The notes under the pieces are model-generated. The model was not told the origin of the DNA and made no database searches. It saw only the letters and a list, made by a program, of their open reading frames with translations. A stretch of 64,000 bases of DNA, from NCBI RefSeq assembly GCF_029227855.1, contig NZ_CP074356.1; one strand, written 5' to 3'. This DNA is from Escherichia coli (lineage in GTDB: Bacteria; Pseudomonadota; Gammaproteobacteria; Enterobacterales; Enterobacteriaceae). Position 1 is the stretch's first letter. The number at the start of each line of letters is the position of its first letter. Both the position numbers and the translations under genes were made by a program. Positions 10,865-38,280 of the stretch are shown here, piece after piece.

Positions 10865-10866
10865 CG

Positions 10867-17120: not shown

Positions 17121-18482
17121 GTGGAAAAAGAAAATATCACCCTCGATCCGCGTTCTTCATTTACTCCATCTTCGTCGGCAGATATTCCCGTGCCACCAGA
17201 TGGATTAGTTCAACGCAGTACCCGAATTAAACGCATTCAAACCACCGCCATGTTGTTATTATTTTTTGCGGCGGTAATCAATTATCTCGACCGCAGTTCG
17301 CTGTCGGTAGCAAATTTAACGATTCGTGAAGAATTGGGATTAAGTGCCACCGAAATCGGCGCTTTGCTCTCCGTGTTTTCACTCGCTTACGGGATTGCGC
17401 AACTTCCTTGCGGCCCACTATTGGATCGTAAAGGCCCACGCCTGATGCTGGGACTGGGGATGTTCTTCTGGTCACTGTTCCAGGCCATGTCTGGCATGGT
17501 GCACAGCTTTACGCAGTTCGTGTTGGTGCGTATTGGTATGGGGATTGGTGAAGCGCCGATGAACCCATGCGGTGTAAAAGTCATTAACGACTGGTTCAAC
17601 ATCAAAGAGCGCGGACGCCCGATGGGCTTCTTCAACGCAGCTTCTACCATTGGCGTTGCCGTAAGCCCACCGATTCTTGCGGCGATGATGCTGGTGATGG
17701 GCTGGCGCGGGATGTTTATTACCATTGGTGTACTGGGGATTTTTCTCGCCATCGGCTGGTATATGCTCTATCGCAACCGCGAGCACGTAGAACTGACTGC
17801 CGTTGAACAAGCTTATCTCAATGCAGGTAGCGTCAATGCCCGCCGAGATCCGCTCAGTTTTGCCGAATGGCGCAGCCTGTTCCGTAACCGCACAATGTGG
17901 GGAATGATGCTCGGATTCAGTGGCATCAACTACACTGCGTGGCTGTATCTGGCCTGGCTTCCTGGTTACCTGCAAACAGCCTATAACCTGGATTTAAAAA
18001 GCACAGGGTTGATGGCGGCTATCCCTTTCCTGTTTGGGGCTGCCGGGATGCTGGTCAACGGTTACGTTACTGACTGGCTGGTCAAAGGGGGAATGGCTCC
18101 GATTAAAAGCCGTAAGATCTGCATTATTGCCGGGATGTTCTGTTCTGCCGCCTTTACGCTGGTCGTACCGCAAGCGACAACATCCATGACAGCGGTTCTG
18201 CTGATTGGCATGGCACTGTTTTGTATTCACTTTGCCGGAACATCCTGCTGGGGCTTGATCCACGTCGCAGTTGCTTCTCGCATGACTGCGTCGGTGGGCA
18301 GTATCCAGAACTTTGCCAGCTTCATCTGCGCCTCTTTTGCGCCGATCATTACTGGTTTTATTGTTGATACCACCCACTCATTCCGTCTGGCACTAATCAT
18401 CTGCGGTTGCGTCACCGCGGCGGGTGCACTGGCGTACATCTTCCTGGTTCGTCAGCCGATCAACGACCCGCGTAAAGATTAA
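17121..18482 (+). CDS. lgoT: MFS L-galactonate:H+ symporter
   Basis: 453 aa, 12 predicted membrane spans, GTG start. Confidence 0.8.
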   Translation: MEKENITLDPRSSFTPSSSADIPVPPDGLVQRSTRIKRIQTTAMLLLFFAAVINYLDRSSLSVANLTIREELGLSATEIGALLSVFSLAYGIAQLPCGPLLDRKGPRLMLGLGMFFWSLFQAMSGMVHSFTQFVLVRIGMGIGEAPMNPCGVKVINDWFNIKERGRPMGFFNAASTIGVAVSPPILAAMMLVMGWRGMFITIGVLGIFLAIGWYMLYRNREHVELTAVEQAYLNAGSVNARRDPLSFAEWRSLFRNRTMWGMMLGFSGINYTAWLYLAWLPGYLQTAYNLDLKSTGLMAAIPFLFGAAGMLVNGYVTDWLVKGGMAPIKSRKICIIAGMFCSAAFTLVVPQATTSMTAVLLIGMALFCIHFAGTSCWGLIHVAVASRMTASVGSIQNFASFICASFAPIITGFIVDTTHSFRLALIICGCVTAAGALAYIFLVRQPINDPRKD

Positions 18483-18530
18483 TCTCCCTATGCCCGATAA
18501 CATTTTGCTTATCGGGCATTTTTATGGCGA

Positions 18531-20195
18531 TTAAAACGTTTCCCAGTTCTCCCCGCTATCTGCCACGGCCATTTTACGCGGCGCAGCTGGCGTCACGGTT
18601 TTTACCACAGCCGATGTTTCACGCTGCTGTTGCTGCTGTTGCTGAATCCGGAACACTGCCACAGCTTCGGTCAGGCGACTGGCCTGCTCTTCCAGCGCGG
18701 CAGCGGCGGCGGCAGATTCTTCCACCAGTGCGGCGTTCTGTTGAGTTACCCGGTCCATCTCAGCAACCGCTAATCCAACCTGATCGATACCACGGCTCTG
18801 CTCATCAGAAGCAGAAGCAATTTCGCCCATAATGTCCGTCACGCGGGTCACGGCACTGACAATCTCCGCCATTGTTTCCCCTGCGCTTTCGACCAGCGTA
18901 GAGCCAACATCCACTTTCCCCACCGAGTCTTCAATCAGGCTTTTAATTTCACGAGCCGCCTGGGCGCTGCGCTGGGCCAGATTACGCACTTCTCCCGCGA
19001 CCACCGCAAAACCGCGCCCTTGCTCACCCGCACGCGCAGCCTCAACCGCCGCGTTCAAAGCCAGAATATTGGTCTGGAAGGCAATGCCGTCAATTACGCT
19101 GATAATATCGGCGATTTTCTGCGAACTGGTGGAGATATCGCGCATAGTCTGCACCACGTTATCTACCACTTTGCCGCCGCGTTGCGCCGTTTCAGAAGCA
19201 CTTAACGCCAGATGGCTGGCCTGACGCGCATTCTCGGCGTTCTGTTTCACCGTTGCGGTCAGTTGCTCCATGCTGGCTGCCGTCTCTTCCAGCGAAGCGG
19301 CCTGTTGCTCGGTGCGCGAAGAGAGATCGTTATTGCCGGTGGCGATTTCGCTGGCACCGCTATAAATGGCATTGGCCCCGTTGCGCACATCACCGACGGT
19401 ACGCATCAGCTCTCCCTGCATATGGCGCAAACTCTCTGCCAGTTGCCCCATCTCATTAGAGCCATCCACCTCAATCGGTTTCACCAGATCGCCGCCTGCA
19501 ATATGACGAATGCTGTCAATCAGGCGATTCATTGGCGCTACCAACGAGGCTTTAATACCGAACCAGACGGCGAAGATGACCGCCAGTACGACGATCATCA
19601 CGCCCACCAGGATCCACATCGCCTGGCTGTAGGAGGCATTATTATCGCTGACGGCGATATCATAGAGCCGATCGTTTTGCTCCATGTAAGCCACATACTG
19701 CTTCTCGAAACCGTCCTGATATCCCTGGGTCGGCTGATCAAAGAACTCGTTGATTTTGCCTGCACCTAACAGTTGGATCAGCTCCGCCAGCGCATTGTGA
19801 TAAATATCGTAATTACGTTTGATCTCTGCCGCTGCGGCGGTGCTCTGACGCGGGTCACGCGGCAACGCTTCGTAATCCGCCCAGTTTTTTTCCGCCTGTT
19901 TCAGCGAAATACTGGCACTCTGCATCAGCTCAGCAACGGTTGAACCGCTACCAATATTATTCTGATCCATCATGTAGCGGATACCCGCGCGGTTGAGGGT
20001 GTTACGCGTCTGCAACAACGCGACCCAGCTGCCATTCAGCGTGGATTGCTGCTGGCGAATGGTTTGTAAAACAGTGAAATTTTCTTTGTCATTCTTTAAG
20101 GCATTAAAGAACAGACCGCCTGATGTCAGTTGTAAAAGGCCAAAAACGGCCAAAACCAGCAGTAAGCTGGTCACAATTTTGATACGTTTTAACAT
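18531..20195 (-). CDS. tsr: Methyl-accepting chemotaxis protein I (serine chemoreceptor)
   Basis: 554 aa; conserved MCP signalling domain, [15 protein letters not shown]-terminal NWETF pentapeptide; QQQQQQQ run before RETS. Confidence 0.95.
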
Positions 20196-20225
20196 GTTTT
20201 CTCTTTCCTGTGGACCGATGCAAGA

Positions 20226-20252
20226 TTTTCGGCCTGGAAAGGAAAAACTTTA
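20226..20252 (-). promoter_or_regulatory. Sigma28 (FliA) class-3 promoter of tsr
   Basis: Reverse strand reads TAAAGTTT-N11-GCCGAAAA about 30 nt upstream of the tsr start (consensus TAAAGTTT-N11-GCCGATAA). Confidence 0.55.
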
Positions 20253-20313
20253 TGAAAAGGTGTAACCCGCCATCCATGGAAAAACCAGGCGCTGGTTATC
20301 AGATATTAAAAAG

Positions 20314-20760
20314 TTATTCATTATCGCCCGGGATGTCTTCTTGTCGGGAATTACCCAGAGCAATAAATTCCTCTAACAGATGGGTTAACTGTTGCATTTT
20401 CTCGGCAGTAAACTGAGCTTCAATCTGCCGATAGGCCTCTTCAATCTGTGTCTGAGCGCGGTTATACAGCGCCTGCCCCTCTTTGGTCAGCGAGATATAG
20501 AGCTTCCGCTGATCATTGATCGGCTTTAATCGCAACACTAAACCGTCGCGTTCCATCCGCGTAAGGATCCCGGTCAGGCTTGGGCGCAAAATGCAGGCGC
20601 GATACGCCAGATCGTGAAAATCCATTGATGGGCTTTCCGCCAGAATACGCACGATGCGCCACTGTTGCTCAGTCAAATTATGCCGTTTAACGATTGGGCG
20701 AAAATAACTCATCGCCGCTTCTCGCGCCTGGAGCAACGCAATGGTTAGAGAGTCGTGCAT
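20314..20760 (-). CDS. hpaR: MarR-family repressor of the hpa meta-cleavage operon
   Basis: ORF 20314..20841; the 148-aa form starts MHDSLTIALLQAREAAMSYF; divergent from hpaG. Confidence 0.85.
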   Translation of the reverse strand: MHDSLTIALLQAREAAMSYFRPIVKRHNLTEQQWRIVRILAESPSMDFHDLAYRACILRPSLTGILTRMERDGLVLRLKPINDQRKLYISLTKEGQALYNRAQTQIEEAYRQIEAQFTAEKMQQLTHLLEEFIALGNSRQEDIPGDNE

Positions 20761-21031
20761 TATCTTTCCCCTGAAAAATTCAAAATCATTAATATAGAAA
20801 CAGTTAATCATCACGTTACCGGGACTGCGCTGCCCCTGCAATTCTTCATTTTATCAAAATTGAGCATGTTTTGTTAACTTGCTGATATTTAATATTTTAT
20901 TATCTTTAAATGTAAATAGTTTGTTAATTAGATCACATTTACATCACTTACTTTTGCCAAACTACGCAATCGGGAATAAAAGTAATCATTAACATATTAA
21001 TGATTAAGATGATCGAATCCGAGGAGTGGTA

Positions 21032-22321
21032 ATGAAAGGCACTATCTTCGCCGTAGCGTTGAACCATCGCAGCCAGCTTGATGCATGGCAGGAAGCGTTC
21101 CAGCAATCCCCCTACAAAACCCCGCCTAAAACTGCGGTCTGGTTTATTAAACCGCGCAATACGGTGATTGGTTGCGGTGAACCGATTCCCTTTCCACAGG
21201 GTGAAAAAGTACTGAGCGGTGCGACTGTTGCGCTGATTGTGGGGAAAACGGCGACGAAAGTACGTGAAGAAGATGCGGCAGAGTACATCGCCGGATATGC
21301 GCTGGCTAACGACGTCAGCCTGCCGGAAGAGAGCTTTTACCGCCCGGCAATCAAAGCAAAATGTCGTGATGGATTCTGCCCCATTGGCGAAACCGTGGCT
21401 CCCAGCAATGTCGATAATCTGACTATCTATACCGAGATCAACGGGCGTCCTGCCGATCATTGGAACACCGCCGATTTACAACGTAACGCCGCGCAGTTGC
21501 TGAGCGCTCTGAGCGAATTTGCCACGCTGAATCCAGGCGATGCCATTCTGCTCGGCACGCCACAGGCGCGCGTGGAAATACAGCCAGGCGATCGCGTGCG
21601 TGTTCTCGCAGAAGGTTTCCCGCCACTGGAAAATCCGGTAGTGGACGAACGTGAAGTGACCACGCGCAAGAGCTTCCCAACGCAGCCACACCCGCACGGC
21701 ACGCTGTTTGCCCTCGGCCTGAACTACGCCGACCACGCCAGCGAACTGGAATTTAAGCCACCGGAAGAACCGCTGGTGTTCCTGAAAGCGCCGAATACCC
21801 TCACTGGCGATAACCAGACCTCCGTGCGCCCGAACAATATTGAATACATGCACTACGAAGCGGAGCTGGTGGTAGTTATTGGCAAGCAGGCGCGTAACGT
21901 CAGCGAAGCCGATGCCATGGATTATGTCGCGGGCTACACCGTGTGTAACGACTACGCCATTCGCGACTATCTGGAAAACTACTACCGCCCTAACCTGCGG
22001 GTAAAAAGCCGCGACGGACTGACGCCGATGCTTTCAACCATCGTGCCGAAAGAGGCGATCCCGGACCCGCATAATCTGACCCTTCGCACCTTCGTCAACG
22101 GCGAGTTACGCCAGCAAGGCACCACCGCCGATCTGATCTTCAGCGTGCCCTTCCTGATCGCCTACTTAAGCGAATTTATGACCCTGAATCCGGGCGACAT
22201 GATCGCCACCGGCACACCAAAAGGCTTATCTGACGTGGTGCCTGGCGATGAAGTAGTGGTGGAAGTAGAAGGCGTGGGCCGCCTGGTGAACCGAATTGTG
22301 AGTGAGGAAACAGCGAAATGA
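21032..22321 (+). CDS. hpaG: Bifunctional 5-oxopent-3-ene-1,2,5-tricarboxylate decarboxylase / 2-hydroxyhepta-2,4-diene-1,7-dioate isomerase
   Basis: About 429 aa with two tandem FAH-fold halves; first gene of the hpaGEDFHI order. Confidence 0.85.
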   Translation: MKGTIFAVALNHRSQLDAWQEAFQQSPYKTPPKTAVWFIKPRNTVIGCGEPIPFPQGEKVLSGATVALIVGKTATKVREEDAAEYIAGYALANDVSLPEESFYRPAIKAKCRDGFCPIGETVAPSNVDNLTIYTEINGRPADHWNTADLQRNAAQLLSALSEFATLNPGDAILLGTPQARVEIQPGDRVRVLAEGFPPLENPVVDEREVTTRKSFPTQPHPHGTLFALGLNYADHASELEFKPPEEPLVFLKAPNTLTGDNQTSVRPNNIEYMHYEAELVVVIGKQARNVSEADAMDYVAGYTVCNDYAIRDYLENYYRPNLRVKSRDGLTPMLSTIVPKEAIPDPHNLTLRTFVNGELRQQGTTADLIFSVPFLIAYLSEFMTLNPGDMIATGTPKGLSDVVPGDEVVVEVEGVGRLVNRIVSEETAK

Positions 22322-23784
22322 AAAAAGTAAATCATTGGATCAACGGCAAAAATGTTGCAGGTAACGACTACTTCCAGACCACCAATCCGGCAACGGGTGA
22401 AGTGCTGGCAGATGTGGCCTCCGGCGGTGAAGCGGAGATCAATCAGGCGGTAGCGGCAGCGAAAGAGGCGTTCCCGAAATGGGCCAATCTGCCGATGAAA
22501 GAGCGTGCGCGCCTGATGCGCCGTCTGGGCGATCTGATCGACCAGAACGTGCCTGAGATCGCCGCGATGGAAACCGCGGACACGGGCCTGCCGATCCATC
22601 AGACCAAAAATGTATTGATCCCACGCGCTTCTCACAACTTTGAATTTTTCGCGGAAGTCTGCCAGCAGATGAACGGCAAGACCTATCCGGTTGACGACAA
22701 GATGCTCAACTACACGCTGGTGCAACCGGTAGGCGTTTGTGCGCTGGTATCGCCGTGGAACGTGCCGTTTATGACCGCCACATGGAAGGTCGCGCCGTGT
22801 CTGGCGCTGGGCAATACCGCGGTGTTGAAAATGTCGGAACTCTCCCCGCTGACCGCTGACCGCCTGGGTGAGCTGGCGCTGGAAGCCGGTATTCCGGCGG
22901 GCGTGCTGAACGTGGTACAGGGCTACGGCGCAACCGCAGGCGATGCGCTGGTTCGTCATCATGACGTACGTGCCGTGTCGTTCACCGGCGGTACGGCCAC
23001 CGGGCGCAACATCATGAAAAACGCCGGGCTGAAAAAATACTCCATGGAACTGGGCGGTAAATCGCCGGTGCTGATTTTTGAAGATGCCGATATTGAACGC
23101 GCGCTGGACGCTGCCCTGTTCACCATCTTCTCGATCAACGGCGAGCGCTGCACCGCCGGTTCGCGCATCTTTATTCAGCAAAGCATCTACCCGGAATTCG
23201 TTAAACGCTTTGCCGAACGCGCCAACCGTCTGCGCGTGGGCGATCCGAACGATCCGAATACCCAGGTTGGGGCGCTTATCAGCCAGCAACACTGGGAAAA
23301 AGTCTCCGGCTATATTCGTCTCGGCATTGAAGAAGGCGCAACCCTGCTAGCGGGCGGTCCGGATAAACCGTCCGACCTGCCTGCGCACCTGAAAGGCGGC
23401 AACTTCCTGCGCCCAACGGTGCTGGCTGACGTTGATAACCGTATGCGCGTCGCCCAGGAAGAGATTTTCGGGCCGGTCGCCTGTCTGCTGCCGTTTAAAG
23501 ACGAAGCTGAAGGTCTGCGCCTGGCAAATGACGTGGAGTATGGCCTCGCGTCGTACATCTGGACGCAGGATGTCAGCAAAGTGTTACGCCTGGCGCGTGG
23601 CATTGAAGCAGGCATGGTGTTCGTCAACACCCAGAACGTGCGCGACCTGCGCCAGCCGTTTGGCGGCGTAAAAGCCTCCGGCACCGGGCGTGAAGGCGGT
23701 GAGTACAGCTTCGAAGTGTTCGCGGAAATGAAGAACGTCTGCATTTCCATGGGCGACCATCCAATTCCGAAATGGGGAGTCTGA
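22318..23784 (+). CDS. hpaE: 5-carboxymethyl-2-hydroxymuconate semialdehyde dehydrogenase
   Basis: 488 aa aldehyde dehydrogenase (catalytic Cys region GERCTAGSR); start overlaps hpaG stop. Confidence 0.9.
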   Translation: MKKVNHWINGKNVAGNDYFQTTNPATGEVLADVASGGEAEINQAVAAAKEAFPKWANLPMKERARLMRRLGDLIDQNVPEIAAMETADTGLPIHQTKNVLIPRASHNFEFFAEVCQQMNGKTYPVDDKMLNYTLVQPVGVCALVSPWNVPFMTATWKVAPCLALGNTAVLKMSELSPLTADRLGELALEAGIPAGVLNVVQGYGATAGDALVRHHDVRAVSFTGGTATGRNIMKNAGLKKYSMELGGKSPVLIFEDADIERALDAALFTIFSINGERCTAGSRIFIQQSIYPEFVKRFAERANRLRVGDPNDPNTQVGALISQQHWEKVSGYIRLGIEEGATLLAGGPDKPSDLPAHLKGGNFLRPTVLADVDNRMRVAQEEIFGPVACLLPFKDEAEGLRLANDVEYGLASYIWTQDVSKVLRLARGIEAGMVFVNTQNVRDLRQPFGGVKASGTGREGGEYSFEVFAEMKNVCISMGDHPIPKWGV

Positions 23785-23785
23785 T

Positions 23786-24637
23786 ATGGGTAAGTTAGCG
23801 TTAGCCGCCAAAATCACGCACGTACCGTCGATGTATCTCTCTGAACTACCAGGGAAAAACCACGGTTGCCGCCAGGGTGCGATCGACGGGCATAAAGAGA
23901 TCAGCAAGCGTTGCCGGGAAATGGGCGTCGATACCATTATCGTTTTCGATACTCACTGGCTGGTCAACAGTGCTTATCACATCAACTGTGCAGACCATTT
24001 TGAAGGCGTCTACACCAGCAACGAGCTGCCGCATTTTATTCGTGACATGACCTACAACTACGAGGGCAACCCGGAGTTGGGGCAGCTTATTGCCGATGAA
24101 GCCTTAAAACTCGGCGTGCGGGCAAAAGCGCACAACATTCCCAGCCTGAAACTGGAATACGGCACGCTGGTGCCAATGCGCTACATGAATGAAGACAAGC
24201 ACTTCAAAGTGGTCTCCATTTCGGCTTTCTGCACGGTTCACGATTTTGCCGACAGCCGCAAGCTTGGCGAAGCGATTTTGAAAGCAATCGAACAGTACGA
24301 CGGCACCGTGGCGGTCCTTGCCAGCGGTTCGTTATCGCACCGCTTTATTGACGATCAGCGTGCGGAAGAAGGGATGAACAGCTACACCCGCGAGTTCGAC
24401 CGCCAGATGGACGAGCGCGTGGTGAAGCTGTGGCGCGAAGGCCAGTTCAAAGAGTTCTGCAATATGCTGCCGGAGTACGCCGACTACTGCTACGGCGAAG
24501 GCAATATGCACGACACGGTGATGCTGCTGGGGATGCTCGGCTGGGATAAATACGACGGCAAGGTGGAGTTTATCACCGAGCTGTTCCCAAGCTCCGGTAC
24601 TGGTCAGGTTAACGCTGTTTTCCCGCTTCCCGCGTAA
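23786..24637 (+). CDS. hpaD: 3,4-dihydroxyphenylacetate 2,3-dioxygenase (extradiol)
   Basis: 283 aa, LigB-type extradiol dioxygenase, cluster context. Confidence 0.85.
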   Translation: MGKLALAAKITHVPSMYLSELPGKNHGCRQGAIDGHKEISKRCREMGVDTIIVFDTHWLVNSAYHINCADHFEGVYTSNELPHFIRDMTYNYEGNPELGQLIADEALKLGVRAKAHNIPSLKLEYGTLVPMRYMNEDKHFKVVSISAFCTVHDFADSRKLGEAILKAIEQYDGTVAVLASGSLSHRFIDDQRAEEGMNSYTREFDRQMDERVVKLWREGQFKEFCNMLPEYADYCYGEGNMHDTVMLLGMLGWDKYDGKVEFITELFPSSGTGQVNAVFPLPA

Positions 24638-24646
24638 GGACGTTTT

Positions 24647-25027
24647 ATGCCGCACTTTATCGTTGAATGTACTGAAAATATTCGTGAAGAAGCCCGCTTA
24701 CCTGAGCTGTTTGCCAGTGTTAACACTGCACTGGCGGCGACGGGGATTTTTCCGCTTGGGGGAATACGTAGCCGGGCGCACTGGATCGATACCTGGCAAA
24801 TGGCTGATGGCAAGCACGATTACGCCTTTGTGCATATGACGCTAAAAATCGGCAGCGGGCGCAGTCTGGAAAGCCGTCAGGAAGTGGGCGAAATGGTGTT
24901 TGATCTGATTAAAACGCACTTCGCCTCACTGATGGAGAGCCGTTACCTGGCGCTTTCATTTGAGATTGCAGAGCTGCACCCGACGTTGAATTTCAAACAG
25001 AACAACGTACACGCGTTGTTTAAATAA
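24647..25027 (+). CDS. hpaF: 5-carboxymethyl-2-hydroxymuconate isomerase
   Basis: 126 aa [16 protein letters not shown]... Confidence 0.85.
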
Positions 25028-25094
25028 ATTTGTACCAGCTTCCAGGCCGGATGATAAGGCGCAGCCGCATCCGGCAATGCCACAGGATATCGCC

Positions 25095-25898
25095 ATGTTC
25101 GATAAACACACCCACACCCTGATCGCCCAGCGTCTGGATCAGGCAGAAAAACAGCGCGAACAGATCCGCGCGATCTCGCTGGATTACCCGGAGATCACCA
25201 TCGAAGATGCCTACGCCGTACAGCGCGAATGGGTCCGCCTGAAAATTGCCGAAGGCCGTACGCTGAAAGGCCACAAAATCGGCCTGACCTCGAAAGCGAT
25301 GCAGGCCAGCTCACAAATCAGCGAACCGGATTACGGCGCGCTGCTGGACGACATGTTCTTCCACGATGGCAGCGATATCCCGACCGATCGCTTTATCGTG
25401 CCGCGCATTGAAGTGGAGCTGGCTTTCGTGCTGGCAAAACCGCTGCGTGGGCCAAACTGCACGCTGTTCGACGTTTACAACGCCACGGACTATGTGATCC
25501 CGGCGCTGGAGCTGATCGACGCTCGCTGCCACAACATCGATCCGGAAACCCAGCGCCCGCGTAAAGTGTTCGACACCATTTCTGATAACGCCGCCAATGC
25601 CGGGGTGATCCTCGGTGGTCGTCCCATTAAGCCCGATGAGTTGGATCTGCGTTGGATCTCCGCCCTGATGTATCGTAATGGCGTGATTGAAGAAACTGGC
25701 GTCGCCGCTGGCGTGCTGAATCACCCGGCAAACGGCGTGGCCTGGCTGGCGAACAAACTCGCACCGTATGACGTACAACTGGAAGCCGGGCAAATCATTC
25801 TCGGCGGTTCGTTTACCCGCCCGGTTCCGGCGCGTAAGGGCGACACCTTCCACGTCGATTACGGCAACATGGGCTCCATTAGCTGCCGCTTTGTTTAA
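25095..25898 (+). CDS. hpaH: 2-oxo-hept-4-ene-1,7-dioate hydratase
   Basis: ORF 25077..25898; the 267-aa form starts [20 protein letters not shown]. Confidence 0.85.
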
Positions 25899-25908
25899 GG
25901 AGAGAACG

Positions 25909-26697
25909 ATGGAAAACAGTTTTAAAGCGGCGCTGAAAGCAGGCCGCCCGCAGATCGGATTATGGCTGGGGCTAAGTAGCAGCTACAGCGCAGAGTTACT
26001 GGCCGGAGCAGGATTCGACTGGTTATTGATCGACGGTGAGCACGCGCCGAATAACGTGCAAACCGTGCTCACCCAGCTACAGGCGATTGCGCCCTACCCC
26101 AGCCAGCCGGTAGTACGTCCATCGTGGAACGATCCGGTGCAAATCAAACAACTGCTGGACGTCGGCACACAAACCTTACTGGTGCCGATGGTACAAAACG
26201 CCGACGAAGCCCGTGAAGCGGTACGCGCCACCCGTTATCCCCCCGCCGGTATTCGCGGTGTGGGCAGTGCGCTGGCTCGCGCCTCGCGCTGGAATCGCAT
26301 TCCTGATTACCTGCAAAAAGCCAACGATCAAATGTGCGTGCTGGTGCAAATCGAAACGCGTGAGGCAATGAAGAACTTACCGCAGATTCTGGACGTGGAA
26401 GGGGTCGACGGCGTGTTTATCGGCCCGGCGGATCTGAGCGCCGATATGGGTTATGCCGGTAATCCGCAGCACCCGGAAGTACAGGTCGCCATTGAGCAGG
26501 CGATCGTGCAGATCCGCGAAGCGGGCAAAGCGCCGGGGATCCTGATCGCCAATGAGCAACTGGCAAAACGCTATCTGGAACTGGGCGCGCTATTTGTCGC
26601 CGTCGGCGTTGACACCACCCTGCTCGCCCGCGCCGCCGAAGCGCTGGCAGCACGGTTTGGCGCGCAGGCCACGACCGTTAAGCCCGGCGTGTATTAA
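25909..26697 (+). CDS. hpaI: 4-hydroxy-2-oxo-heptane-1,7-dioate aldolase
   Basis: 262 aa from [22 protein letters not shown]; class II aldolase family. Confidence 0.85.
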
Positions 26698-26806
26698 TGT
26701 CGATCCGGCCTACACGCGCACTAAACCATAGGCTGGATAAGACGTTTACGCCGCATCCGCCATAAACCTTGTCGTACCCTACAAAAATCCCATTAGAGGA
26801 AGAAAA

Positions 26807-28183
26807 ATGAGCGACACCTCACCTGCCATACCGGAGAGTATCGATCCGGCGAATCAGCATAAAGCGCTGACTACCGGACAACAGGCGGTTATTAAGAAGC
26901 TGTTTCGCCGCCTGATCGTCTTTCTGTTCGTGCTGTTTATCTTCTCGTTCCTTGATCGCATCAACATCGGCTTTGCCGGGCTAACGATGGGACGCGACCT
27001 CGGTCTGAGCGCCACCATGTTTGGCCTCGCCACCACCCTGTTCTATGCCGCTTATGTCATCTTCGGCATTCCCAGCAACATTATGCTGAGTATTGTCGGT
27101 GCGCGGCGCTGGATCGCCACCATCATGGTGCTCTGGGGCATCGCCTCTACGGCCACCATGTTTGCCACTGGCCCCACCAGCTTATACGTACTGCGTATAC
27201 TGGTTGGCATTACCGAAGCCGGCTTTCTGCCTGGCATTCTGCTGTATTTAACCTTCTGGTTTCCGGCCTATTTCCGCGCCCGTGCCAACGCCTTGTTTAT
27301 GGTAGCAATGCCGGTAACGACAGCGCTGGGATCGATCGTTTCCGGCTACATTTTGTCGCTGGATGGCGTAATGGCATTAAAAGGCTGGCAGTGGCTGTTT
27401 TTGCTGGAAGGCTTCCCGTCGGTATTACTCGGCGTCATGGTGTGGTTCTGGCTTGATGACTCACCGGACAAAGCTAAGTGGCTGACGAAAGAAGACAAAA
27501 AATGCCTGCAAGAGATGATGGATAACGATCGTCTGACGCTGGTTCAGCCAGAGGGAGCCATCAGTCACCACGCCATGCAACAACGCAGCATGTGGCGGGA
27601 GATCTTCACTCCGGTGGTGATGATGTATACCCTGGCGTATTTCTGCCTGACCAACACACTTAGTGCAATCAGCATCTGGACACCGCAGATCCTACAAAGC
27701 TTTAATCAGGGCAGCAGTAATATCACCATCGGCCTGCTGGCCGCCGTACCGCAGATTTGTACCATTCTCGGGATGATCTACTGGAGCCGTCACTCAGATC
27801 GCCGCCAGGAACGAAGGCATCACACCGCCCTTCCTTATTTGTTCGCTGCCGCTGGTTGGTTACTGGCTTCGGCAACTGATCACAACATGATCCAGATGCT
27901 GGGGATCATTATGGCTTCGACCGGATCATTCAGCGCAATGGCGATTTTCTGGACAACACCGGATCAGTCCATCAGCCTGCGGGCACGAGCGATCGGTATT
28001 GCGGTGATCAACGCCACTGGCAACATTGGTTCAGCGTTAAGTCCGTTTATGATCGGCTGGTTGAAAGATCTGACCGGCAGCTTTAACAGTGGATTGTGGT
28101 TTGTTGCCGCGCTGCTGGTGATTGGTGCGGGGATTATCTGGGCAATTCCAATGCAGTCCTCCCGTCCGCGAGCGACCCCGTAA
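26807..28183 (+). CDS. hpaX: MFS 4-hydroxyphenylacetate transporter
   Basis: 458 aa, 12 predicted membrane spans, between hpaI and hpaA. Confidence 0.85.
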   Translation: MSDTSPAIPESIDPANQHKALTTGQQAVIKKLFRRLIVFLFVLFIFSFLDRINIGFAGLTMGRDLGLSATMFGLATTLFYAAYVIFGIPSNIMLSIVGARRWIATIMVLWGIASTATMFATGPTSLYVLRILVGITEAGFLPGILLYLTFWFPAYFRARANALFMVAMPVTTALGSIVSGYILSLDGVMALKGWQWLFLLEGFPSVLLGVMVWFWLDDSPDKAKWLTKEDKKCLQEMMDNDRLTLVQPEGAISHHAMQQRSMWREIFTPVVMMYTLAYFCLTNTLSAISIWTPQILQSFNQGSSNITIGLLAAVPQICTILGMIYWSRHSDRRQERRHHTALPYLFAAAGWLLASATDHNMIQMLGIIMASTGSFSAMAIFWTTPDQSISLRARAIGIAVINATGNIGSALSPFMIGWLKDLTGSFNSGLWFVAALLVIGAGIIWAIPMQSSRPRATP

Positions 28184-28192
28184 GGAACGACG

Positions 28193-29083
28193 ATGTGTGA
28201 CCGTCAGATTGCCAATATTGATATCAGCAAAGAGTACGATGAAAGCCTGGGCACGGACGATGTGCATTATCAGTCCTTCGCCCGCATGGCGGCCTTTTTT
28301 GGCCGCCATATGCTGCCACATCGCCACGAACAGTACTTTCAGATGCATTTCCTCAATAGCGGACAGATTGAGCTACAGCTTGACGATCATCGCTACTCGG
28401 TGGAAGCGCCCCTGTTTGTCCTGACGCCGCCGTCAGTACCTCATGCGTTTATTACGGAGTCTGACGCCGACGGTCATGTGTTGACGGTACGGGAAGATCT
28501 GATCTGGCCCCTGCTGGAAGTTCTTTATCCGGGCACTCGGGAAACCTTCGGCCTGCCGGGGATTTGCCTGTCACTGGCAGATAAACCCGACGAACTGGCG
28601 GCGCTGGAACACTATTGGCAACTGATAGAGCGGGAATCGGTGGAACAACTGCCTGGACGGGAACACACCCTGACGCTACTGGCACAGGCAGTGTTCACCC
28701 TACTGCTGCGTAACGCAAAACTCGACGACCATGCCGCCAGCGGAATGCGCGGAGAATTAAAACTGTTCCAGCGTTTTCATATGCTGATTGAAAGCCATTT
28801 TCACCAGCACTGGACAGTACCGGATTACGCTAACGAACTGCATATCACCGAATCACGCCTCACGGACATCTGCCGCCGCTTTGCCAACCGTCCGCCAAAA
28901 CGGTTGATTTTCGACAGGCAGCTGCGAGAAGCCAAGCGGCTGCTGCTGTTTTCTGATAACGCCGTGAACAATATTGCCTGGCAACTCGGTTTTAAGGATC
29001 CGGCTTATTTTGCGCGCTTTTTTAATCGTTTAGTCGGTTGCTCGCCCAGTGCTTACCGTGCCAAAAAAGTACCTGTGACGTGA
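28193..29083 (+). CDS. hpaA: AraC/XylS-family activator of hpaBC
   Basis: 296 aa with C-terminal AraC-type HTH (NIAWQLGFKDPAYFARFF). Confidence 0.85.
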   Translation: MCDRQIANIDISKEYDESLGTDDVHYQSFARMAAFFGRHMLPHRHEQYFQMHFLNSGQIELQLDDHRYSVEAPLFVLTPPSVPHAFITESDADGHVLTVREDLIWPLLEVLYPGTRETFGLPGICLSLADKPDELAALEHYWQLIERESVEQLPGREHTLTLLAQAVFTLLLRNAKLDDHAASGMRGELKLFQRFHMLIESHFHQHWTVPDYANELHITESRLTDICRRFANRPPKRLIFDRQLREAKRLLLFSDNAVNNIAWQLGFKDPAYFARFFNRLVGCSPSAYRAKKVPVT

Positions 29084-29333
29084 AAATCCCTTAGCCTTAA
29101 CGGGAAACCAGGCATCACCTGCTATTCCTCTTTCTCCGCCTGGAGCAAGGGGATTTAGTAACGTCAAAAATAGCTAAAAGCGACCTCGATCACAAAACCG
29201 TACCCGACCTGAAAAGTACCAGCCATTGTCCCAAAAGTGTCTTCCCGTAATCGCCCCTGCAAGCTTCAATTGAATAACAAAAACAACACACAAAATTAAC
29301 AATCGTATTCCGATTAATACTGTAGAGGTCGAC

Positions 29334-30896
29334 ATGAAACCAGAAGATTTCCGCGCCAGTACCCAACGTCCGTTCACCGGGGAAGAGTATCTGAAAAGCC
29401 TGCAGGATGGTCGCGAGATCTATATCTATGGCGAGCGAGTGAAAGACGTCACCACTCATCCGGCATTTCGTAATGCGGCAGCGTCTGTTGCCCAACTGTA
29501 CGACGCGCTGCACAAACCGGAGATGCAGGACTCTCTGTGTTGGAACACCGACACCGGCAGCGGCGGCTATACCCATAAATTCTTCCGCGTGGCGAAAAGT
29601 GCCGACGACCTGCGCCAGCAACGCGACGCCATCGCTGAGTGGTCACGCCTGAGCTATGGCTGGATGGGCCGTACCCCAGACTACAAGGCTGCTTTCGGTT
29701 GCGCACTGGGCGCGAATCCGGGCTTTTACGGTCAGTTCGAGCAGAACGCCCGTAACTGGTACACCCGTATTCAGGAAACTGGCCTCTACTTTAACCACGC
29801 GATTGTTAACCCACCGATCGATCGTCATTTGCCGACCGATAAAGTGAAAGACGTTTACATCAAGCTGGAAAAAGAGACTGACGCCGGGATTATCGTCAGC
29901 GGTGCGAAAGTGGTTGCCACCAACTCGGCGCTGACTCACTACAACATGATTGGCTTCGGCTCGGCACAAGTGATGGGCGAAAACCCGGACTTCGCACTGA
30001 TGTTCGTTGCGCCAATGGATGCCGATGGCGTGAAATTAATCTCCCGCGCCTCTTATGAGATGGTCGCGGGTGCTACCGGCTCCCCGTACGACTACCCGCT
30101 CTCCAGCCGCTTCGATGAGAACGATGCGATTCTGGTGATGGATAACGTGCTGATCCCATGGGAAAACGTGCTGATCTACCGCGATTTTGATCGCTGCCGT
30201 CGCTGGACGATGGAAGGCGGTTTCGCCCGTATGTATCCGCTGCAAGCCTGTGTACGCCTGGCAGTGAAACTCGACTTCATTACGGCACTGCTGAAAAAAT
30301 CACTCGAATGTACCGGCACCCTGGAGTTCCGTGGTGTGCAGGCCGATCTCGGTGAAGTGGTGGCGTGGCGCAACACCTTCTGGGCATTGAGTGACTCGAT
30401 GTGTTCAGAAGCGACACCATGGGTCAACGGTGCTTATTTACCGGATCATGCCGCACTGCAAACCTATCGCGTACTGGCACCAATGGCCTACGCGAAGATC
30501 AAAAACATTATCGAACGCAACGTTACCAGTGGCCTGATCTATCTCCCTTCCAGTGCCCGTGACCTGAACAATCCGCAGATCGACCAGTATCTGGCGAAGT
30601 ATGTGCGCGGTTCGAATGGTATGGATCACGTCCAGCGCATCAAGATCCTCAAACTGATGTGGGATGCCATTGGCAGCGAGTTTGGTGGTCGTCACGAGCT
30701 GTATGAAATCAACTACTCCGGTAGCCAGGATGAGATTCGCCTGCAGTGTCTGCGCCAGGCACAAAGCTCCGGCAATATGGACAAGATGATGGCGATGGTT
30801 GATCGCTGCCTGTCGGAATACGACCAGAACGGCTGGACTGTGCCGCACCTGCACAACAACGACGATATCAACATGCTGGATAAGCTGCTGAAATAA
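29334..30896 (+). CDS. hpaB: 4-hydroxyphenylacetate 3-monooxygenase, oxygenase component
   Basis: 520 aa MKPEDFRASTQRPFTGEEYLKSLQDGREIYIYGERVKDVTTHPAFRN. Confidence 0.9.
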   Translation: MKPEDFRASTQRPFTGEEYLKSLQDGREIYIYGERVKDVTTHPAFRNAAASVAQLYDALHKPEMQDSLCWNTDTGSGGYTHKFFRVAKSADDLRQQRDAIAEWSRLSYGWMGRTPDYKAAFGCALGANPGFYGQFEQNARNWYTRIQETGLYFNHAIVNPPIDRHLPTDKVKDVYIKLEKETDAGIIVSGAKVVATNSALTHYNMIGFGSAQVMGENPDFALMFVAPMDADGVKLISRASYEMVAGATGSPYDYPLSSRFDENDAILVMDNVLIPWENVLIYRDFDRCRRWTMEGGFARMYPLQACVRLAVKLDFITALLKKSLECTGTLEFRGVQADLGEVVAWRNTFWALSDSMCSEATPWVNGAYLPDHAALQTYRVLAPMAYAKIKNIIERNVTSGLIYLPSSARDLNNPQIDQYLAKYVRGSNGMDHVQRIKILKLMWDAIGSEFGGRHELYEINYSGSQDEIRLQCLRQAQSSGNMDKMMAMVDRCLSEYDQNGWTVPHLHNNDDINMLDKLLK

Positions 30897-30913
30897 CGCA
30901 GCAGGAGGTTAAG

Positions 30914-31426
30914 ATGCAATTAGATGAACAACGCCTGCGCTTTCGTGACGCGATGGCCAGCCTGTCGGCAGCGGTAAATATTATCACCACCGAGGGCGAC
31001 GCCGGACAATGCGGGATTACGGCAACGGCCGTCTGCTCGGTCACGGATACACCACCATCGCTGATGGTGTGCATTAACGCCAACAGTGCGATGAACCCGG
31101 TTTTTCAGGGCAACGGCAAGTTGTGCGTCAACGTCCTCAACCATGAGCAGGAACTGATGGCACGCCACTTCGCGGGCATGACGGGCATGGCGATGGAAGA
31201 GCGTTTTAGCCTCTCATGCTGGCAAAAAGGTCCGCTGGCGCAGCCGGTGCTGAAAGGTTCGCTGGCCAGTCTTGAAGGTGAGATCCGCGATGTGCAGGCA
31301 ATTGGCACACATCTGGTGTATCTGGTGGAGATTAAAAACATCATCCTCAGTGCAGAAGGTCACGGACTTATCTACTTTAAACGCCGTTTCCATCCGGTGA
31401 TGCTGGAAATGGAAGCTGCGATTTAA
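30914..31426 (+). CDS. hpaC: 4-hydroxyphenylacetate 3-monooxygenase, flavin reductase component
   Basis: 170 aa MQLDEQRLRFRDAMASLSAAVNIITTEG. Confidence 0.9.
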   Translation: MQLDEQRLRFRDAMASLSAAVNIITTEGDAGQCGITATAVCSVTDTPPSLMVCINANSAMNPVFQGNGKLCVNVLNHEQELMARHFAGMTGMAMEERFSLSCWQKGPLAQPVLKGSLASLEGEIRDVQAIGTHLVYLVEIKNIILSAEGHGLIYFKRRFHPVMLEMEAAI

Positions 31427-31432
31427 GCTCCA

Positions 31433-31468
31433 GCCCCTTCACGCATTCGTCGAAGGGGCATTTTTATT
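31433..31468 (+). terminator. Rho-independent terminator after hpaC
   Basis: ccccttcacgcattcgtcgaagggg hairpin followed by catttttatt. Confidence 0.6.
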
Positions 31469-31511
31469 GTGATCTCAATCACATATCCACCCGATGAATA
31501 ATTCTTGCCCA

Positions 31512-31539
31512 ACCGCTCACCGCCATTCCTGACCGCTTA
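31512..31539 (+). promoter_or_regulatory. Candidate BtsR (YehT) operator: direct repeat ACCGCTCA ... ACCGCTTA upstream of btsT
   Basis: Two ACC(G/A)CT(C/T)A copies with a 12-nt spacer about 280 nt upstream of the btsT start; site assignment from memory of the yjiY promoter. Confidence 0.4.
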
Positions 31540-31818
31540 CGTCCCTAAAATAACCACTCAGTTATTTACCTTACTTTACGCGCGCGTAACTCTGGCAACA
31601 TCACTGCAGGATAGCGGTCAATTTACCTCCTCAAACGCAACGCAAACCTAGAACGGCTTCGGCCTATGATTAACAAATTACTCTATGGATTTTGGTTTGC
31701 AGGAAGGCAGCAAGTGAGTGAATCCCCGGGAGCTTACAACAGTAAGTGACAGGGGTGAACGAACGCAGCTGCCGCACCTGTAAGCCAAAAGACGACGAGT
31801 AAAATGCCAGGTTTTACT

Positions 31819-33969
31819 ATGGATACGAAAAAACTATTCAAGCACATACCCTGGGTGATTCTCGGAATCATCGGTGCATTCTGCCTCGCGGTAGTTGCAT
31901 TACGTCGGGGGGAGCACGTCAGCGCCCTGTGGATCGTGGTCGCCTCTGTGTCGGTGTATCTGGTGGCGTATCGCTACTACAGTCTGTACATCGCCCAGAA
32001 GGTGATGAAACTCGACCCCACGCGCGCGACGCCTGCGGTTATTAACAACGACGGTCTGAACTACGTTCCGACCAACCGTTACGTGTTGTTTGGTCACCAC
32101 TTCGCCGCTATCGCCGGTGCTGGTCCGCTGGTCGGTCCGGTTCTCGCCGCACAGATGGGCTACCTGCCTGGCACGCTGTGGCTGCTGGCGGGGGTAGTGC
32201 TGGCCGGTGCGGTACAGGACTTTATGGTGCTGTTTATCTCCTCTCGCCGTAACGGCGCATCTCTCGGTGAGATGATCAAAGAAGAGATGGGACCAGTACC
32301 GGGGACTATCGCGCTGTTTGGCTGTTTCTTAATCATGATCATCATCCTCGCCGTTCTGGCGCTGATTGTGGTTAAAGCCCTGGCCGAAAGTCCGTGGGGT
32401 GTCTTCACCGTTTGCTCAACCGTACCAATTGCGCTGTTTATGGGTATCTACATGCGCTTTATCCGTCCGGGGCGTGTGGGTGAAGTCTCTGTCATTGGTA
32501 TCGTGCTGCTGGTTGCCTCTATCTACTTCGGTGGCGTGATTGCTCACGATCCGTACTGGGGTCCGGCACTGACCTTTAAAGACACCACCATTACCTTCGC
32601 GCTGATTGGCTATGCGTTTGTTTCCGCGCTGCTGCCGGTGTGGCTGATCCTCGCACCACGCGACTATCTGGCAACCTTCCTGAAAATCGGCGTTATCGTC
32701 GGCCTGGCGCTGGGTATCGTGGTGCTGAACCCGGAACTGAAAATGCCTGCGATGACCCAGTACATTGACGGTACTGGCCCGCTGTGGAAAGGCGCTCTGT
32801 TCCCGTTCCTGTTCATCACCATCGCCTGTGGTGCGGTATCTGGCTTCCACGCACTGATCTCTTCCGGTACGACGCCGAAACTGCTGGCTAACGAAACCGA
32901 CGCGCGTTTCATTGGCTACGGCGCAATGCTGATGGAGTCCTTCGTGGCGATTATGGCGCTGGTTGCTGCGTCCATCATCGAACCGGGTCTTTACTTCGCG
33001 ATGAACACCCCGCCTGCTGGCCTTGGCATCACCATGCCTAACCTGCATGAAATGGGTGGCGAGAACGCGCCGATCATCATGGCGCAGCTGAAAGACGTTA
33101 CCGCACACGCGGCAGCGACCGTCAGCTCCTGGGGCTTCGTGATTTCGCCAGAGCAGATCCTGCAAACCGCGAAAGACATTGGTGAGCCTTCTGTCCTGAA
33201 CCGTGCAGGTGGTGCGCCGACGCTGGCGGTAGGTATCGCTCACGTGTTCCACAAAGTGCTGCCGATGGCTGACATGGGCTTCTGGTATCACTTCGGTATT
33301 CTGTTCGAAGCCCTGTTCATCCTGACCGCGCTGGATGCGGGTACTCGTTCTGGCCGCTTTATGCTGCAAGACCTGCTGGGTAACTTCATCCCGTTCCTGA
33401 AAAAAACCGACTCTCTGGTTGCTGGTATCATCGGTACTGCGGGCTGTGTGGGTCTGTGGGGCTACCTGCTGTATCAGGGCGTGGTCGATCCGCTGGGCGG
33501 CGTTAAGAGCCTGTGGCCGCTGTTCGGTATCTCCAACCAGATGCTGGCAGCCGTGGCGCTGGTACTGGGTACCGTTGTGCTGATTAAGATGAAGCGCATC
33601 CAATACATCTGGGTAACTGTTGTTCCGGCTGTATGGCTGCTTATCTGCACCACCTGGGCGCTGGGTCTGAAACTGTTCAGTACCAACCCGCAGATGGAAG
33701 GCTTCTTCTACATGGCAAGCCAGTACAAAGAGAAGATTGCTAACGGTACTGACCTGACGGCGCAGCAGATTGCCAACATGAACCACATCGTTGTGAACAA
33801 CTACACCAACGCAGGCCTGAGTATTCTGTTCCTGATTGTGGTGTACAGCATCATCTTCTACGGTTTCAAAACTTGGCTTGCGGTGCGTAACAGCGACAAA
33901 CGTACTGACAAAGAAACACCGTACGTTCCAATCCCGGAAGGCGGCGTGAAGATCTCTTCGCACCACTAA
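31819..33969 (+). CDS. btsT: CstA-family pyruvate/H+ symporter
   Basis: ORF 31804..33969; the 716-aa form starts MDTKKLFKHIPWVILG; multi-span membrane protein. Confidence 0.9.
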   Translation: MDTKKLFKHIPWVILGIIGAFCLAVVALRRGEHVSALWIVVASVSVYLVAYRYYSLYIAQKVMKLDPTRATPAVINNDGLNYVPTNRYVLFGHHFAAIAGAGPLVGPVLAAQMGYLPGTLWLLAGVVLAGAVQDFMVLFISSRRNGASLGEMIKEEMGPVPGTIALFGCFLIMIIILAVLALIVVKALAESPWGVFTVCSTVPIALFMGIYMRFIRPGRVGEVSVIGIVLLVASIYFGGVIAHDPYWGPALTFKDTTITFALIGYAFVSALLPVWLILAPRDYLATFLKIGVIVGLALGIVVLNPELKMPAMTQYIDGTGPLWKGALFPFLFITIACGAVSGFHALISSGTTPKLLANETDARFIGYGAMLMESFVAIMALVAASIIEPGLYFAMNTPPAGLGITMPNLHEMGGENAPIIMAQLKDVTAHAAATVSSWGFVISPEQILQTAKDIGEPSVLNRAGGAPTLAVGIAHVFHKVLPMADMGFWYHFGILFEALFILTALDAGTRSGRFMLQDLLGNFIPFLKKTDSLVAGIIGTAGCVGLWGYLLYQGVVDPLGGVKSLWPLFGISNQMLAAVALVLGTVVLIKMKRIQYIWVTVVPAVWLLICTTWALGLKLFSTNPQMEGFFYMASQYKEKIANGTDLTAQQIANMNHIVVNNYTNAGLSILFLIVVYSIIFYGFKTWLAVRNSDKRTDKETPYVPIPEGGVKISSHH

Positions 33970-35234: not shown

Positions 35235-35525
35235 CTGATCGCGCAGCATCGCTTCACGTAAAATTGCGTTCAGGCGAGTTTGATAGCCTTTACCTGGTCG
35301 CTTCAACCATTCCATCACATCAGCATCAATACGCACCGAAGCCTGAGTTTTCAATGGCCGATAAAACTTACCGCGTTCGGCGTTAGACCATTGCTCATCG
35401 CTGGAAGGTGGGATATCACTGTAATCAATATCTTCGTCGGATTTATTCGTCAGCGCCTTCAGTTCGGCCTCATGCTGCACATCGAGTGTAGAGGAGGTCC
35501 CTCGTTTATGTTTAACCATGCTCAT
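35223..35525 (-). CDS. brnA: BrnA-like antitoxin (DUF4415-type small DNA-binding protein)
   Basis: ORF 35223..35666; about 100 aa from MSMVKHKRG...; C-terminus ...RIDADVMEWLKRPGKGYQTRLNAILREAM matches the BrnA family; start overlaps brnT stop. Confidence 0.7.
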   Translation of the reverse strand: MSMVKHKRGTSSTLDVQHEAELKALTNKSDEDIDYSDIPPSSDEQWSNAERGKFYRPLKTQASVRIDADVMEWLKRPGKGYQTRLNAILREAMLRDQNKK

Positions 35526-38240: not shown

Positions 38241-38280
38241 TTTTTGCGCGATCCTGCCGTCAGGCTCTATTCTTAACATT

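Follow-up and report, generated by a model that had tools for sequence, protein, structure and literature searches.

The window, a stretch of 64,000 nucleotides from an Escherichia coli genome (contig NZ_CP074356.1), contains a complete 4-hydroxyphenylacetate (hpa) catabolic cluster (Table 1). The coordinates of the flanking tsr and btsT genes make 20196-31818 exactly the interval between them, and this interval carries eleven intact genes arranged as hpaR / hpaGEDFHI-hpaX-hpaA-hpaBC. All eleven Hpa proteins matched their own NCBIfam equivalog models over the full length and above the curated cut-offs. These matches confirmed what a first-pass annotation of the same DNA had proposed, namely a complete 11-gene set in this order and orientation that includes a two-component flavin monooxygenase, a meta-cleavage pathway, a transporter and two regulators. 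The six genes of hpaGEDFHI are co-oriented, overlap or are separated by short spacers, and constitute a complete homoprotocatechuate meta-cleavage operon. The divergent hpaR (MarR family) is located upstream of hpaG, hpaX and hpaA (AraC family) sit between both operons, and the two components of the flavin monooxygenase, HpaB and HpaC, are both present at full length.

Table 1. Features of the tsr-btsT interval and its flanks (window positions; bits are scores against the NCBIfam models named).
Feature	Position	Strand	Evidence
tsr, serine chemoreceptor, conserved left flank	18531..20195	-	NF011615 matched 1-554/554; PGAP in identical record
Variable segment vs K-12, 11.2 kb	20257..~31467	.	blastn of K-12 tsr-btsT interval vs window
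hpaR, MarR-family repressor of meta-cleavage operon	20314..20760	-	TIGR02337 1-130/130, 200 bits (cut-off 121); PGAP start; protein identical to E. coli B HpaR
Divergent hpaR/hpaG regulatory region	20761..21031	.	sequence
hpaG, bifunctional isomerase/decarboxylase	21032..22321	+	NF011750 1-429/429, 974 bits
hpaE, 5-carboxymethyl-2-hydroxymuconate semialdehyde dehydrogenase	22318..23784	+	TIGR02299, 739 bits (cut-off 638)
hpaD, 3,4-dihydroxyphenylacetate 2,3-dioxygenase, extradiol ring cleavage	23786..24637	+	TIGR02298, 550 bits
hpaF, 5-carboxymethyl-2-hydroxymuconate isomerase	24647..25027	+	NF011605 1-126/126
REP element, hpaF-hpaH spacer, GGCCGGATGATAAGGCGCAGCCGCATCCGGCA	25045..25076	.	sequence; hairpin -17 kcal/mol
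hpaH, 2-oxo-hept-4-ene-1,7-dioate hydratase	25095..25898	+	TIGR02312 1-267/267; PGAP start
hpaI, 4-hydroxy-2-oxoheptanedioate aldolase	25909..26697	+	TIGR02311 1-248/249; PGAP start
Degenerate REP pair (BIME-like), hpaI-hpaX spacer	26698..26761	.	sequence, fold, E. coli B comparison
hpaX, MFS 4-hydroxyphenylacetate permease	26807..28183	+	TIGR02332 1-412/412, 894 bits
hpaA, AraC-family activator of hpaBC	28193..29083	+	TIGR02297, 387 bits (cut-off 275)
hpaA-hpaB intergenic region, expected HpaA-dependent hpaBC promoter (predicted)	29084..29333	.	sequence; role from PMC7180172
hpaB, oxygenase component of two-component flavin monooxygenase	29334..30896	+	TIGR02310 1-519/519, 1110 bits
hpaC, NADH:flavin reductase component	30914..31426	+	NF012030 1-170/170; protein identical to E. 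coli B HpaC
Intrinsic-terminator-like hairpin and T-run 3' of hpaC	31433..31466	+	fold -18 kcal/mol, then UUUUUAUU
CRP-like site TGTGA-N6-TCACA, upstream of btsT	31468..31483	.	sequence; weak blast match to K-12
ERIC/IRU dispersed repeat in btsT leader, 15 bp before ATG	31677..31803	.	absent in K-12; multi-copy; long hairpin
btsT (yjiY), pyruvate/H+ symporter, conserved right flank	31819..33969	+	PGAP; CstA-family match

Re-translation of all eleven genes, the check for frameshifts and stops that the first-pass annotation had called for, revealed no internal stops, and each protein is equal in length to its E. coli B counterpart. Full-length model coverage together with the absence of stops rules out pseudogenization. 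The corresponding record of E. coli JNEC-KY178 (NZ_AP045174.1) is 100% identical to the window, and PGAP calls the same 11 genes there with no pseudogene flags. The Hpa proteins of E. coli B are 98.5-100% identical to those of the window, four of them identical. The 26 nucleotide differences in hpaD are synonymous and leave the protein unchanged, and the 24 in hpaH cause no amino acid difference either, a synonymous/nonsynonymous pattern that indicates strong purifying selection on the hpa genes. A few amino acids differ from those of E. coli B (among them HpaG L124P, HpaI L217Q and HpaA N196H), and the REP pair after hpaI is degenerate and has a 14-bp deletion. From these features one could argue that the cluster is cryptic or does not function here, for instance because its regulation is defective or because missense changes have inactivated a protein. 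This is very improbable: all genes are full length and score above the curated cut-offs, the substitution pattern is that of purifying selection, the same allele recurs at an identity of at least 99.3% in ten other complete genomes, and the sequence confirmed that the catalytically relevant Arg at HpaB residue 379 is kept. R379 is required for the use of 3-HPA (PMC7201708). Because the genes are intact and R379 is present, a strain with this cluster is predicted to grow on 3-HPA and 4-HPA.

Established knowledge of these protein families suggests how the pathway would operate. HpaX would import 4-HPA or 3-HPA, HpaC would reduce flavin with NADH, and HpaB would hydroxylate the substrate with O2 and the flavin so reduced, yielding 3,4-dihydroxyphenylacetate. 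After extradiol ring cleavage by HpaD, the product would be turned into pyruvate and succinic semialdehyde by HpaE, HpaF, HpaG, HpaH and HpaI. According to the literature, hpaBC would be switched on by HpaA when HPA is present, and hpaGEDFHI would be repressed by HpaR. The motif of the HpaR site is TTAA-N4-TTAA (PMC7180172), and a palindrome with this core, AATCATTAA-CATA-TTAATGATT, found at 20984-21005 in the hpaR/hpaG region, is a candidate HpaR operator. The palindrome recurs in related form (repeat family D17) 200 bp upstream, at 20784-20807. At the opposite end of the cluster, the CRP-like site is retained in hpa+ and K-12 haplotypes alike and is a putative target of CRP. Scans for consensus promoters and terminators gave numbers at or below chance (7 vs 8.6 and 12 vs 13.0, respectively) and missed the hpaC terminator. 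The REP core pattern occurs 9 times in the window vs 1.8 expected by chance. The REP elements that had been noticed after hpaF and after hpaI were both recovered, the latter in degenerate form. The 67-bp hpaF-hpaH spacer shows one difference from E. coli B, located outside the REP, and the first REP of the hpaI-hpaX pair lacks 14 bp that E. coli B has.

The hpa cluster, its enzymes and regulators, and its absence from K-12 are already known and have been described since the 1990s. The cluster of E. coli W was reportedly described by Prieto, Diaz and Garcia in 1996. Its order, hpaRGEDFHIXABC (GenBank Z37980; PMC7180172), equals that found here, as the first-pass annotation had recognized. The clusters of E. 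coli W and B (BL21) share with the window the 11 genes, their order, orientation and chromosomal position, and the REPs in the same two intergenic spacers; the window differs from E. coli B in carrying a divergent allele (~2% at the nucleotide level) and the deletion in the REP pair. The hpc operon of E. coli C (hpcR/hpcECBDGH; Roper et al. 1993) encodes this meta-cleavage pathway and repressor too and differs in nomenclature only, its gene names being older; HpaR has been reported to be identical to HpcR of E. coli C (PMC7180172). The paa (phenylacetate) cluster of E. coli K-12 and W is likewise a strain-variable cluster for aromatic acid catabolism (PMC3446290, PMC3032704), but its chemistry, a CoA-dependent epoxidation, is unrelated, it occupies another locus, and it has no genes in common with hpa.

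In K-12, as anticipated, tsr lies directly beside btsT, at a distance of 377 bp and with no gene between them. When the two tsr-btsT intervals were aligned using blastn, homology to K-12 stopped at 20256, was weak again at 31468-31483 and became firm from 31513. The variable segment is thus 20257-~31467, and K-12 has in its place ~133 bp of unrelated filler. The idea that this filler is what remains of a former hpa sequence was discarded, since blastn detected no similarity beyond the CRP-like site. The ERIC element is an indel separate from the hpa segment.

The cluster was found in 2,073 of 5,426 complete E. coli genomes (38%) and is absent from ~62%, which bears out its description as accessory and strain-variable. 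In all 2,063 genomes checked for location, those with at least 80% coverage of a query spanning both flanks, it resides between tsr and btsT, and it occupies the same place in E. coli B. A common allele, found in E. coli B, HS and the majority of hpa+ complete genomes, differs from that of the window at ~2% of nucleotides. Genomes at least 99% identical to the window's allele number only 14 of the 5,426, and further alleles are found at 98.4-98.9%. The sharers include MS 69-1 and NRZ14408 and probably belong to phylogroup D. The K-12-type empty allele, which is 90-100% identical among 2,753 genomes, is old. In an O157-type allele, the filler measures 771 bp and contains an orphan ORF of 180 aa for which there was no Pfam match, and a further allele is a mosaic carrying an extra MBL-fold gene. 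In strain BS-04, an hpaR remnant is joined straight to the region upstream of btsT and is a deletion scar.

The region had originally been labeled an island, with the remark that neither an integrase nor repeat-bounded ends were visible. This remark was correct. No integrase, recombinase or transposase is encoded within 20196-31818, because every ORF of at least 80 aa is an hpa gene or lies inside or antisense to one. A repeat search of 20100-31900 detected no direct (att) or inverted repeats pairing 20257 with ~31467, only short, low-identity, chance-level pairs inside coding regions. Rfam at the gathering threshold was blank across the hpa interval, with no adjacent tRNA or tmRNA; the only tRNAs that it reported in the window are three tRNA-Leu at 5441-5763, 14.5 kb away. 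The base composition of the cluster is not atypical with respect to its neighbors (GC of 54.5% vs 54.3% for tsr and 56.0% for btsT; window mean, 51.0%). The cluster is 98.0% identical to that of E. coli B, and the flanks are 98.5-98.7% identical.

The hpa clusters of Enterobacter, Klebsiella, Raoultella, Citrobacter and Pseudocitrobacter have the same gene content and order, with nucleotide identities of 71-96%, and share the btsT-yjiX-yjiA neighborhood in many species and the tsr neighborhood in some. Among 51 informative loci of other species, 23 have hpaC followed by btsT-yjiX-yjiA, a junction common to all of these genera. Of 36 loci informative on the other side, 8 have tsr before hpaR: seven of these belong to Enterobacter or Citrobacter species, and one to a divergent representative genome labeled E. 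coli. Identity to those genera is ~71-89% for the hpa genes and alike for the flanks (tsr, 77-80%; btsT/yjiA, 81-89%); hpaX falls into two allelic classes, at ~70% and ~81-83%. In Salmonella arizonae, the order is rearranged and the location is different.

The identity and intactness of the genes, the shared synteny, the flank-like GC content and divergence, the BS-04 remnant and the absence of mobility signals lead us to conclude that the window very probably holds the canonical intact E. coli hpa (homoprotocatechuate) cluster of strains W, B and C as an old, non-mobile tsr-btsT block that has been lost or replaced in many lineages. The block would already have occupied the tsr-btsT position before several genera of Enterobacteriaceae diverged. 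Within E. coli, its presence or absence would be a long-standing polymorphism, the absences having arisen through deletion or replacement by alternative alleles. Lineages probably exchange the alleles through homologous recombination between their conserved flanks, a route that would account for the lack of an integrase, att site and bounding repeat. The view of an old resident has already been put forward (PMC7201708, which cites Diaz et al. 2001). Against it count the age of the K-12-type empty allele, by which either state may be ancestral within E. coli, the 28 of 51 loci in which btsT does not follow hpaC, many species holding hpa elsewhere, and the hpaG-E-D and hpaH-I segments of Pseudocitrobacter, which are 91-96% identical to those of the window vs 85-87% for the flanks. 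This unusually high similarity suggests that some inter-genus exchange has occurred. A scan of one representative genome per species detected no hpaB in the named Escherichia species apart from E. coli, among them E. albertii and E. fergusonii; the cluster may have been lost in an Escherichia ancestor and then re-acquired by E. coli.

Some of these observations would also fit a genomic island that some E. coli lineages gained by horizontal transfer and insertion at the tsr-btsT site, with K-12 representing the ancestral empty site: the cluster is carried by only part of the species, hpaB is missing from the other Escherichia representatives scanned, many genomes have the K-12-type filler, which has itself diverged, GC is slightly over the window mean, and parts of the meta operon are unusually near Pseudocitrobacter. 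We nevertheless consider such an insertion unlikely, as the integrase, flanking repeats and adjacent tRNA are missing, both the btsT-side and the tsr-side junctions occur in other genera, GC equals that of the flanking genes, within-species divergence resembles that of the flanks, and a deletion remnant persists in BS-04. Therefore, the island label stands insofar as it means strain variability but not insertion, and the region is better treated as an ancestral, syntenic, deletion-prone block. An extension of the old-block reading that we regard as possible rather than probable is that the tsr-btsT interval is an ancient multi-allelic polymorphism of E. coli (full hpa, K-12-type 133-bp filler, O157-type 771-bp filler, hpaR-remnant deletions and MBL-fold mosaic), kept across phylogroups and shuffled via homologous recombination in the flanks, with occasional exchange between genera such as that with Pseudocitrobacter.

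HpaBC is widely used in biocatalysis, and 3-HPA and 4-HPA arise in the gut from tyrosine and dietary flavonoids. The cluster is of value for strain annotation in that this clinical-type E. coli is predicted to use both compounds, a trait that separates lineages, for example APEC of phylogroup C from those of B2 and G (PMC12444784).

The 127-bp ERIC just upstream of btsT had been overlooked in the first-pass annotation. In 5,425 E. coli genomes, its sequence is present at a median of 9 sites each; it folds into a long imperfect hairpin (MFE -61.7 kcal/mol, z = -7.5) and appears to match the published ERIC core sequence. In the btsT leader, it has so far been seen only on some hpa or hpa-remnant haplotypes, where it might change btsT expression.

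The open reading frames across 17-35 kb were listed, and the eleven found between tsr and btsT were each scanned against NCBIfam with the curated cut-offs. All eleven matched their own hpa equivalog model over approximately the whole model length and well above the cut-off (see the table). At 100% identity, the window matches the chromosome of the Japanese clinical isolate E. coli JNEC-KY178, on which PGAP annotated the same eleven genes and flagged none as a pseudogene. Re-translation from the PGAP starts produced no internal stops in the hpa proteins, and all eleven lengths were equal to those in E. coli B. These results confirmed the first-pass annotation of a complete eleven-gene hydroxyphenylacetate (HPA) cluster, and the search for frameshifts or stops was negative. 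The genes, their order (described as W-type from the outset), the REP positions, and the locus are all as in the E. coli W, B, and C clusters. K-12 is known to lack the hpa cluster (PMC3032704, PMC3446290), whose presence differs by phylogroup (PMC12444784). The cluster in the window is already known, and only allelic variation sets its sequence apart from the described system.

Features of the window, with the NCBIfam models matched and the model span covered or score
Feature	Position	Strand	Model	Span, score, or remark
Three tandem tRNA-Leu genes	5441-5763			between rsmC and yjjZ; same Rfam scores
tsr	18531-20195	-	NF011615	full length; left flank
hpaR			TIGR02337	1-130/130
Palindrome	20984-21005			just upstream of hpaG
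hpaG			NF011750	1-429/429
hpaE			TIGR02299	739 bits
hpaD			TIGR02298	550 bits
hpaF			NF011605	1-126/126
REP	25045-25076			clean palindrome, hpaF-hpaH spacer
hpaH			TIGR02312	1-267/267
hpaI			TIGR02311	1-248/249
hpaX			TIGR02332	1-412/412
hpaA			TIGR02297	387 bits
hpaB			TIGR02310	1-519/519
hpaC			NF012030	1-170/170
ERIC/IRU element	31677-31803			127 bp; 15 bp upstream of btsT ATG
btsT				right flank; CstA-family symporter match; named BtsT by PGAP
mrr-hsdR-hsdM-hsdS-symE	35235-43620			immigration-control region
DEAD/DEAH-box helicase gene	43663-50007	-		intact; 2,114 aa
yjiT	50020-53310	-		1,096 aa
Pentapeptide-repeat-containing protein gene	62389-64000			cut by window end

As had been stated, tsr and btsT are neighbours in K-12; the 377-bp spacer between them was aligned to the window to set the boundaries. 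Homology to K-12 ends at 20256, a point 61 bp upstream from the start codon of tsr. On the far side, a conserved TGTGA-N6-TCACA site (31468-31483) gives a weak match, and firm homology begins again at 31513; the variable segment therefore extends from 20257 to approximately 31467 (11.2 kb, of which 10.4 kb are coding). Between its homologous ends K-12 has about 133 bp of filler unrelated to the window. The REPs noted after hpaF and hpaI were both found, the second as a degenerate pair with a 14-bp deletion in its first REP, whereas both REPs are intact in the same spacer of E. coli B. Matches to the REP core pattern number 9 in the window, an enrichment over the 1.8 expected. The reported lack of an integrase and of repeat-bounded ends held: neither the ORF listing nor the PGAP annotation included an integrase-like ORF in the interval, and a repeat search detected no direct or inverted repeats bracketing the segment. 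The nearest tRNAs, the three tRNA-Leu genes, are 14.5 kb away.

The gene annotation was correct, and the term "island" is misleading in view of the synteny found in other genera and the flank-like GC content and divergence. A scan of species-representative genomes for HpaB yielded 66 loci, onto which the window proteins were mapped. Of 51 informative loci, 23 have btsT-yjiX-yjiA directly after hpaC, among them loci of Enterobacter spp., Raoultella, Citrobacter, Pseudocitrobacter, Lelliottia, and Pseudenterobacter, as well as Klebsiella michiganensis, K. grimontii, and K. spallanzanii. tsr precedes hpaR in 8 of the 36 loci informative for that side (Enterobacter spp., one Citrobacter species, and one divergent E. 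coli-labelled representative with hpa genes 94-96% identical to those of the window). Nucleotide identity of hpa to these genera is about 71-89%, comparable to that of the flanks (tsr, 77-80%; btsT/yjiA, 81-89%), and the GC content of the segment (54.5%) is close to that of tsr (54.3%) and btsT (56.0%). Identity to E. coli B is 98.0% for the segment and 98.5-98.7% for tsr, btsT, and lgoT. The substitutions are overwhelmingly synonymous; hpaD and hpaH differ at 26 and 24 nucleotides, respectively, and at no amino acid. Taken together, the shared junctions, the resemblance to the flanks in identity, GC content, and divergence, and the mostly synonymous substitutions point to hpa as a syntenic block that is old and under selection, not newly inserted. 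Its absence would then be due to deletion or to replacement by another allele, for which homologous recombination in the flanks is the simplest route; this would also explain the lack of mobility signatures. Loss of an ancestral hpa cluster by K-12 has already been proposed (PMC7201708, citing Diaz et al. 2001). Three caveats apply to the old-block reading. The first two are that the species-representative scan recovered no hpaB in representatives of other named Escherichia species and that the K-12-type empty allele is likewise old. The third is that in Pseudocitrobacter vendiensis, hpaG-E-D and hpaH-I (locus positions 1409-7200, window 21032-26697) are 91-96% identical to the window versus 85-87% for the btsT and yjiA flanks, and therefore some inter-genus recombination within the meta-cleavage operon is suggested; for hpaR, hpaF, hpaX, hpaA, and hpaC, identity is about 81-82%.

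A survey of 5,426 complete E. coli genomes showed that the tsr-btsT interval is multi-allelic, in agreement with the strain variability first proposed. The hpa segment is carried by 2,073 genomes (38%), the 133-bp K-12-type filler by 2,753 (51%; 90-100% identity among its carriers), and a 771-bp O157:H7-type filler by 363 (7%). This last filler includes an orphan 180-aa ORF with no Pfam match. About 240 genomes, by difference, have other alleles, among them a mosaic one and a deletion that left an hpaR remnant. With a query spanning both flanks and at least 80% coverage, hpa was located at this locus in 2,063 genomes. In strain BS-04, a remnant of hpaR with the adjoining hpaR-hpaG spacer (84% identity) is joined to the btsT upstream region, clearly a deletion derivative. 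In ST2747 (locus positions 8978-12198), hpaX-hpaA is swapped for an approximately 69% identical allele resembling the Enterobacter/Raoultella class, and an additional gene, for an MBL-fold metallo-hydrolase, separates hpaA from hpaB. The hpa allele of the window is 97.3-98.4% identical to that of most hpa-positive genomes and at least 99% identical to only 14; its carriers include MS 69-1 and NRZ14408, which are probably phylogroup D.

According to family knowledge and published work (PMC7201708, PMC12444784, PMC7180172), HpaX would import 3-HPA or 4-HPA, and HpaB, fed reduced flavin by the NADH:flavin reductase HpaC, would hydroxylate HPA to 3,4-dihydroxyphenylacetate. Extradiol ring cleavage by HpaD would be followed by the action of HpaE (dehydrogenase), HpaF (isomerase), HpaG (decarboxylase/isomerase), HpaH (hydratase), and HpaI (aldolase) to generate pyruvate and succinic semialdehyde. 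HpaA would activate hpaBC on HPA, and HpaR would repress hpaGEDFHI. The perfect palindrome AATCATTAA-CATA-TTAATGATT includes TTAA-N4-TTAA, a motif reported for HpaR sites (PMC7180172), and is a candidate HpaR site; a second, related copy is found 200 bp further upstream, close to the start of hpaR. hpaC is followed by a terminator hairpin identified by folding, and residue 379 of HpaB is Arg, shown to be necessary for 3-HPA use (PMC7201708). These three features agree with the scheme.

The comparison with K-12 also revealed a 127-bp insertion in the btsT leader, a difference separate from the hpa segment and missing from the first-pass annotation. When folded it forms a long hairpin (-61.7 kcal/mol, z = -7.5), and across 5,425 E. 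coli genomes the median number of places with this sequence is 9 per genome. This dispersed repeat is an ERIC/IRU element, recognised by its match to the published ERIC core sequence. E. coli B and BS-04 carry the element but K-12, O157, and ST2747 do not; it could influence the structure or stability of the btsT mRNA. On the other side of the segment, Tsr is 554 aa long, whereas the K-12 and E. coli B proteins have 551 aa, and a 9-base indel lies within the 18248-18747 part of the alignment. Downstream, the helicase gene and yjiT come after the immigration-control region, and no mcrBC is annotated in 35235-43620 or 43663-53310.
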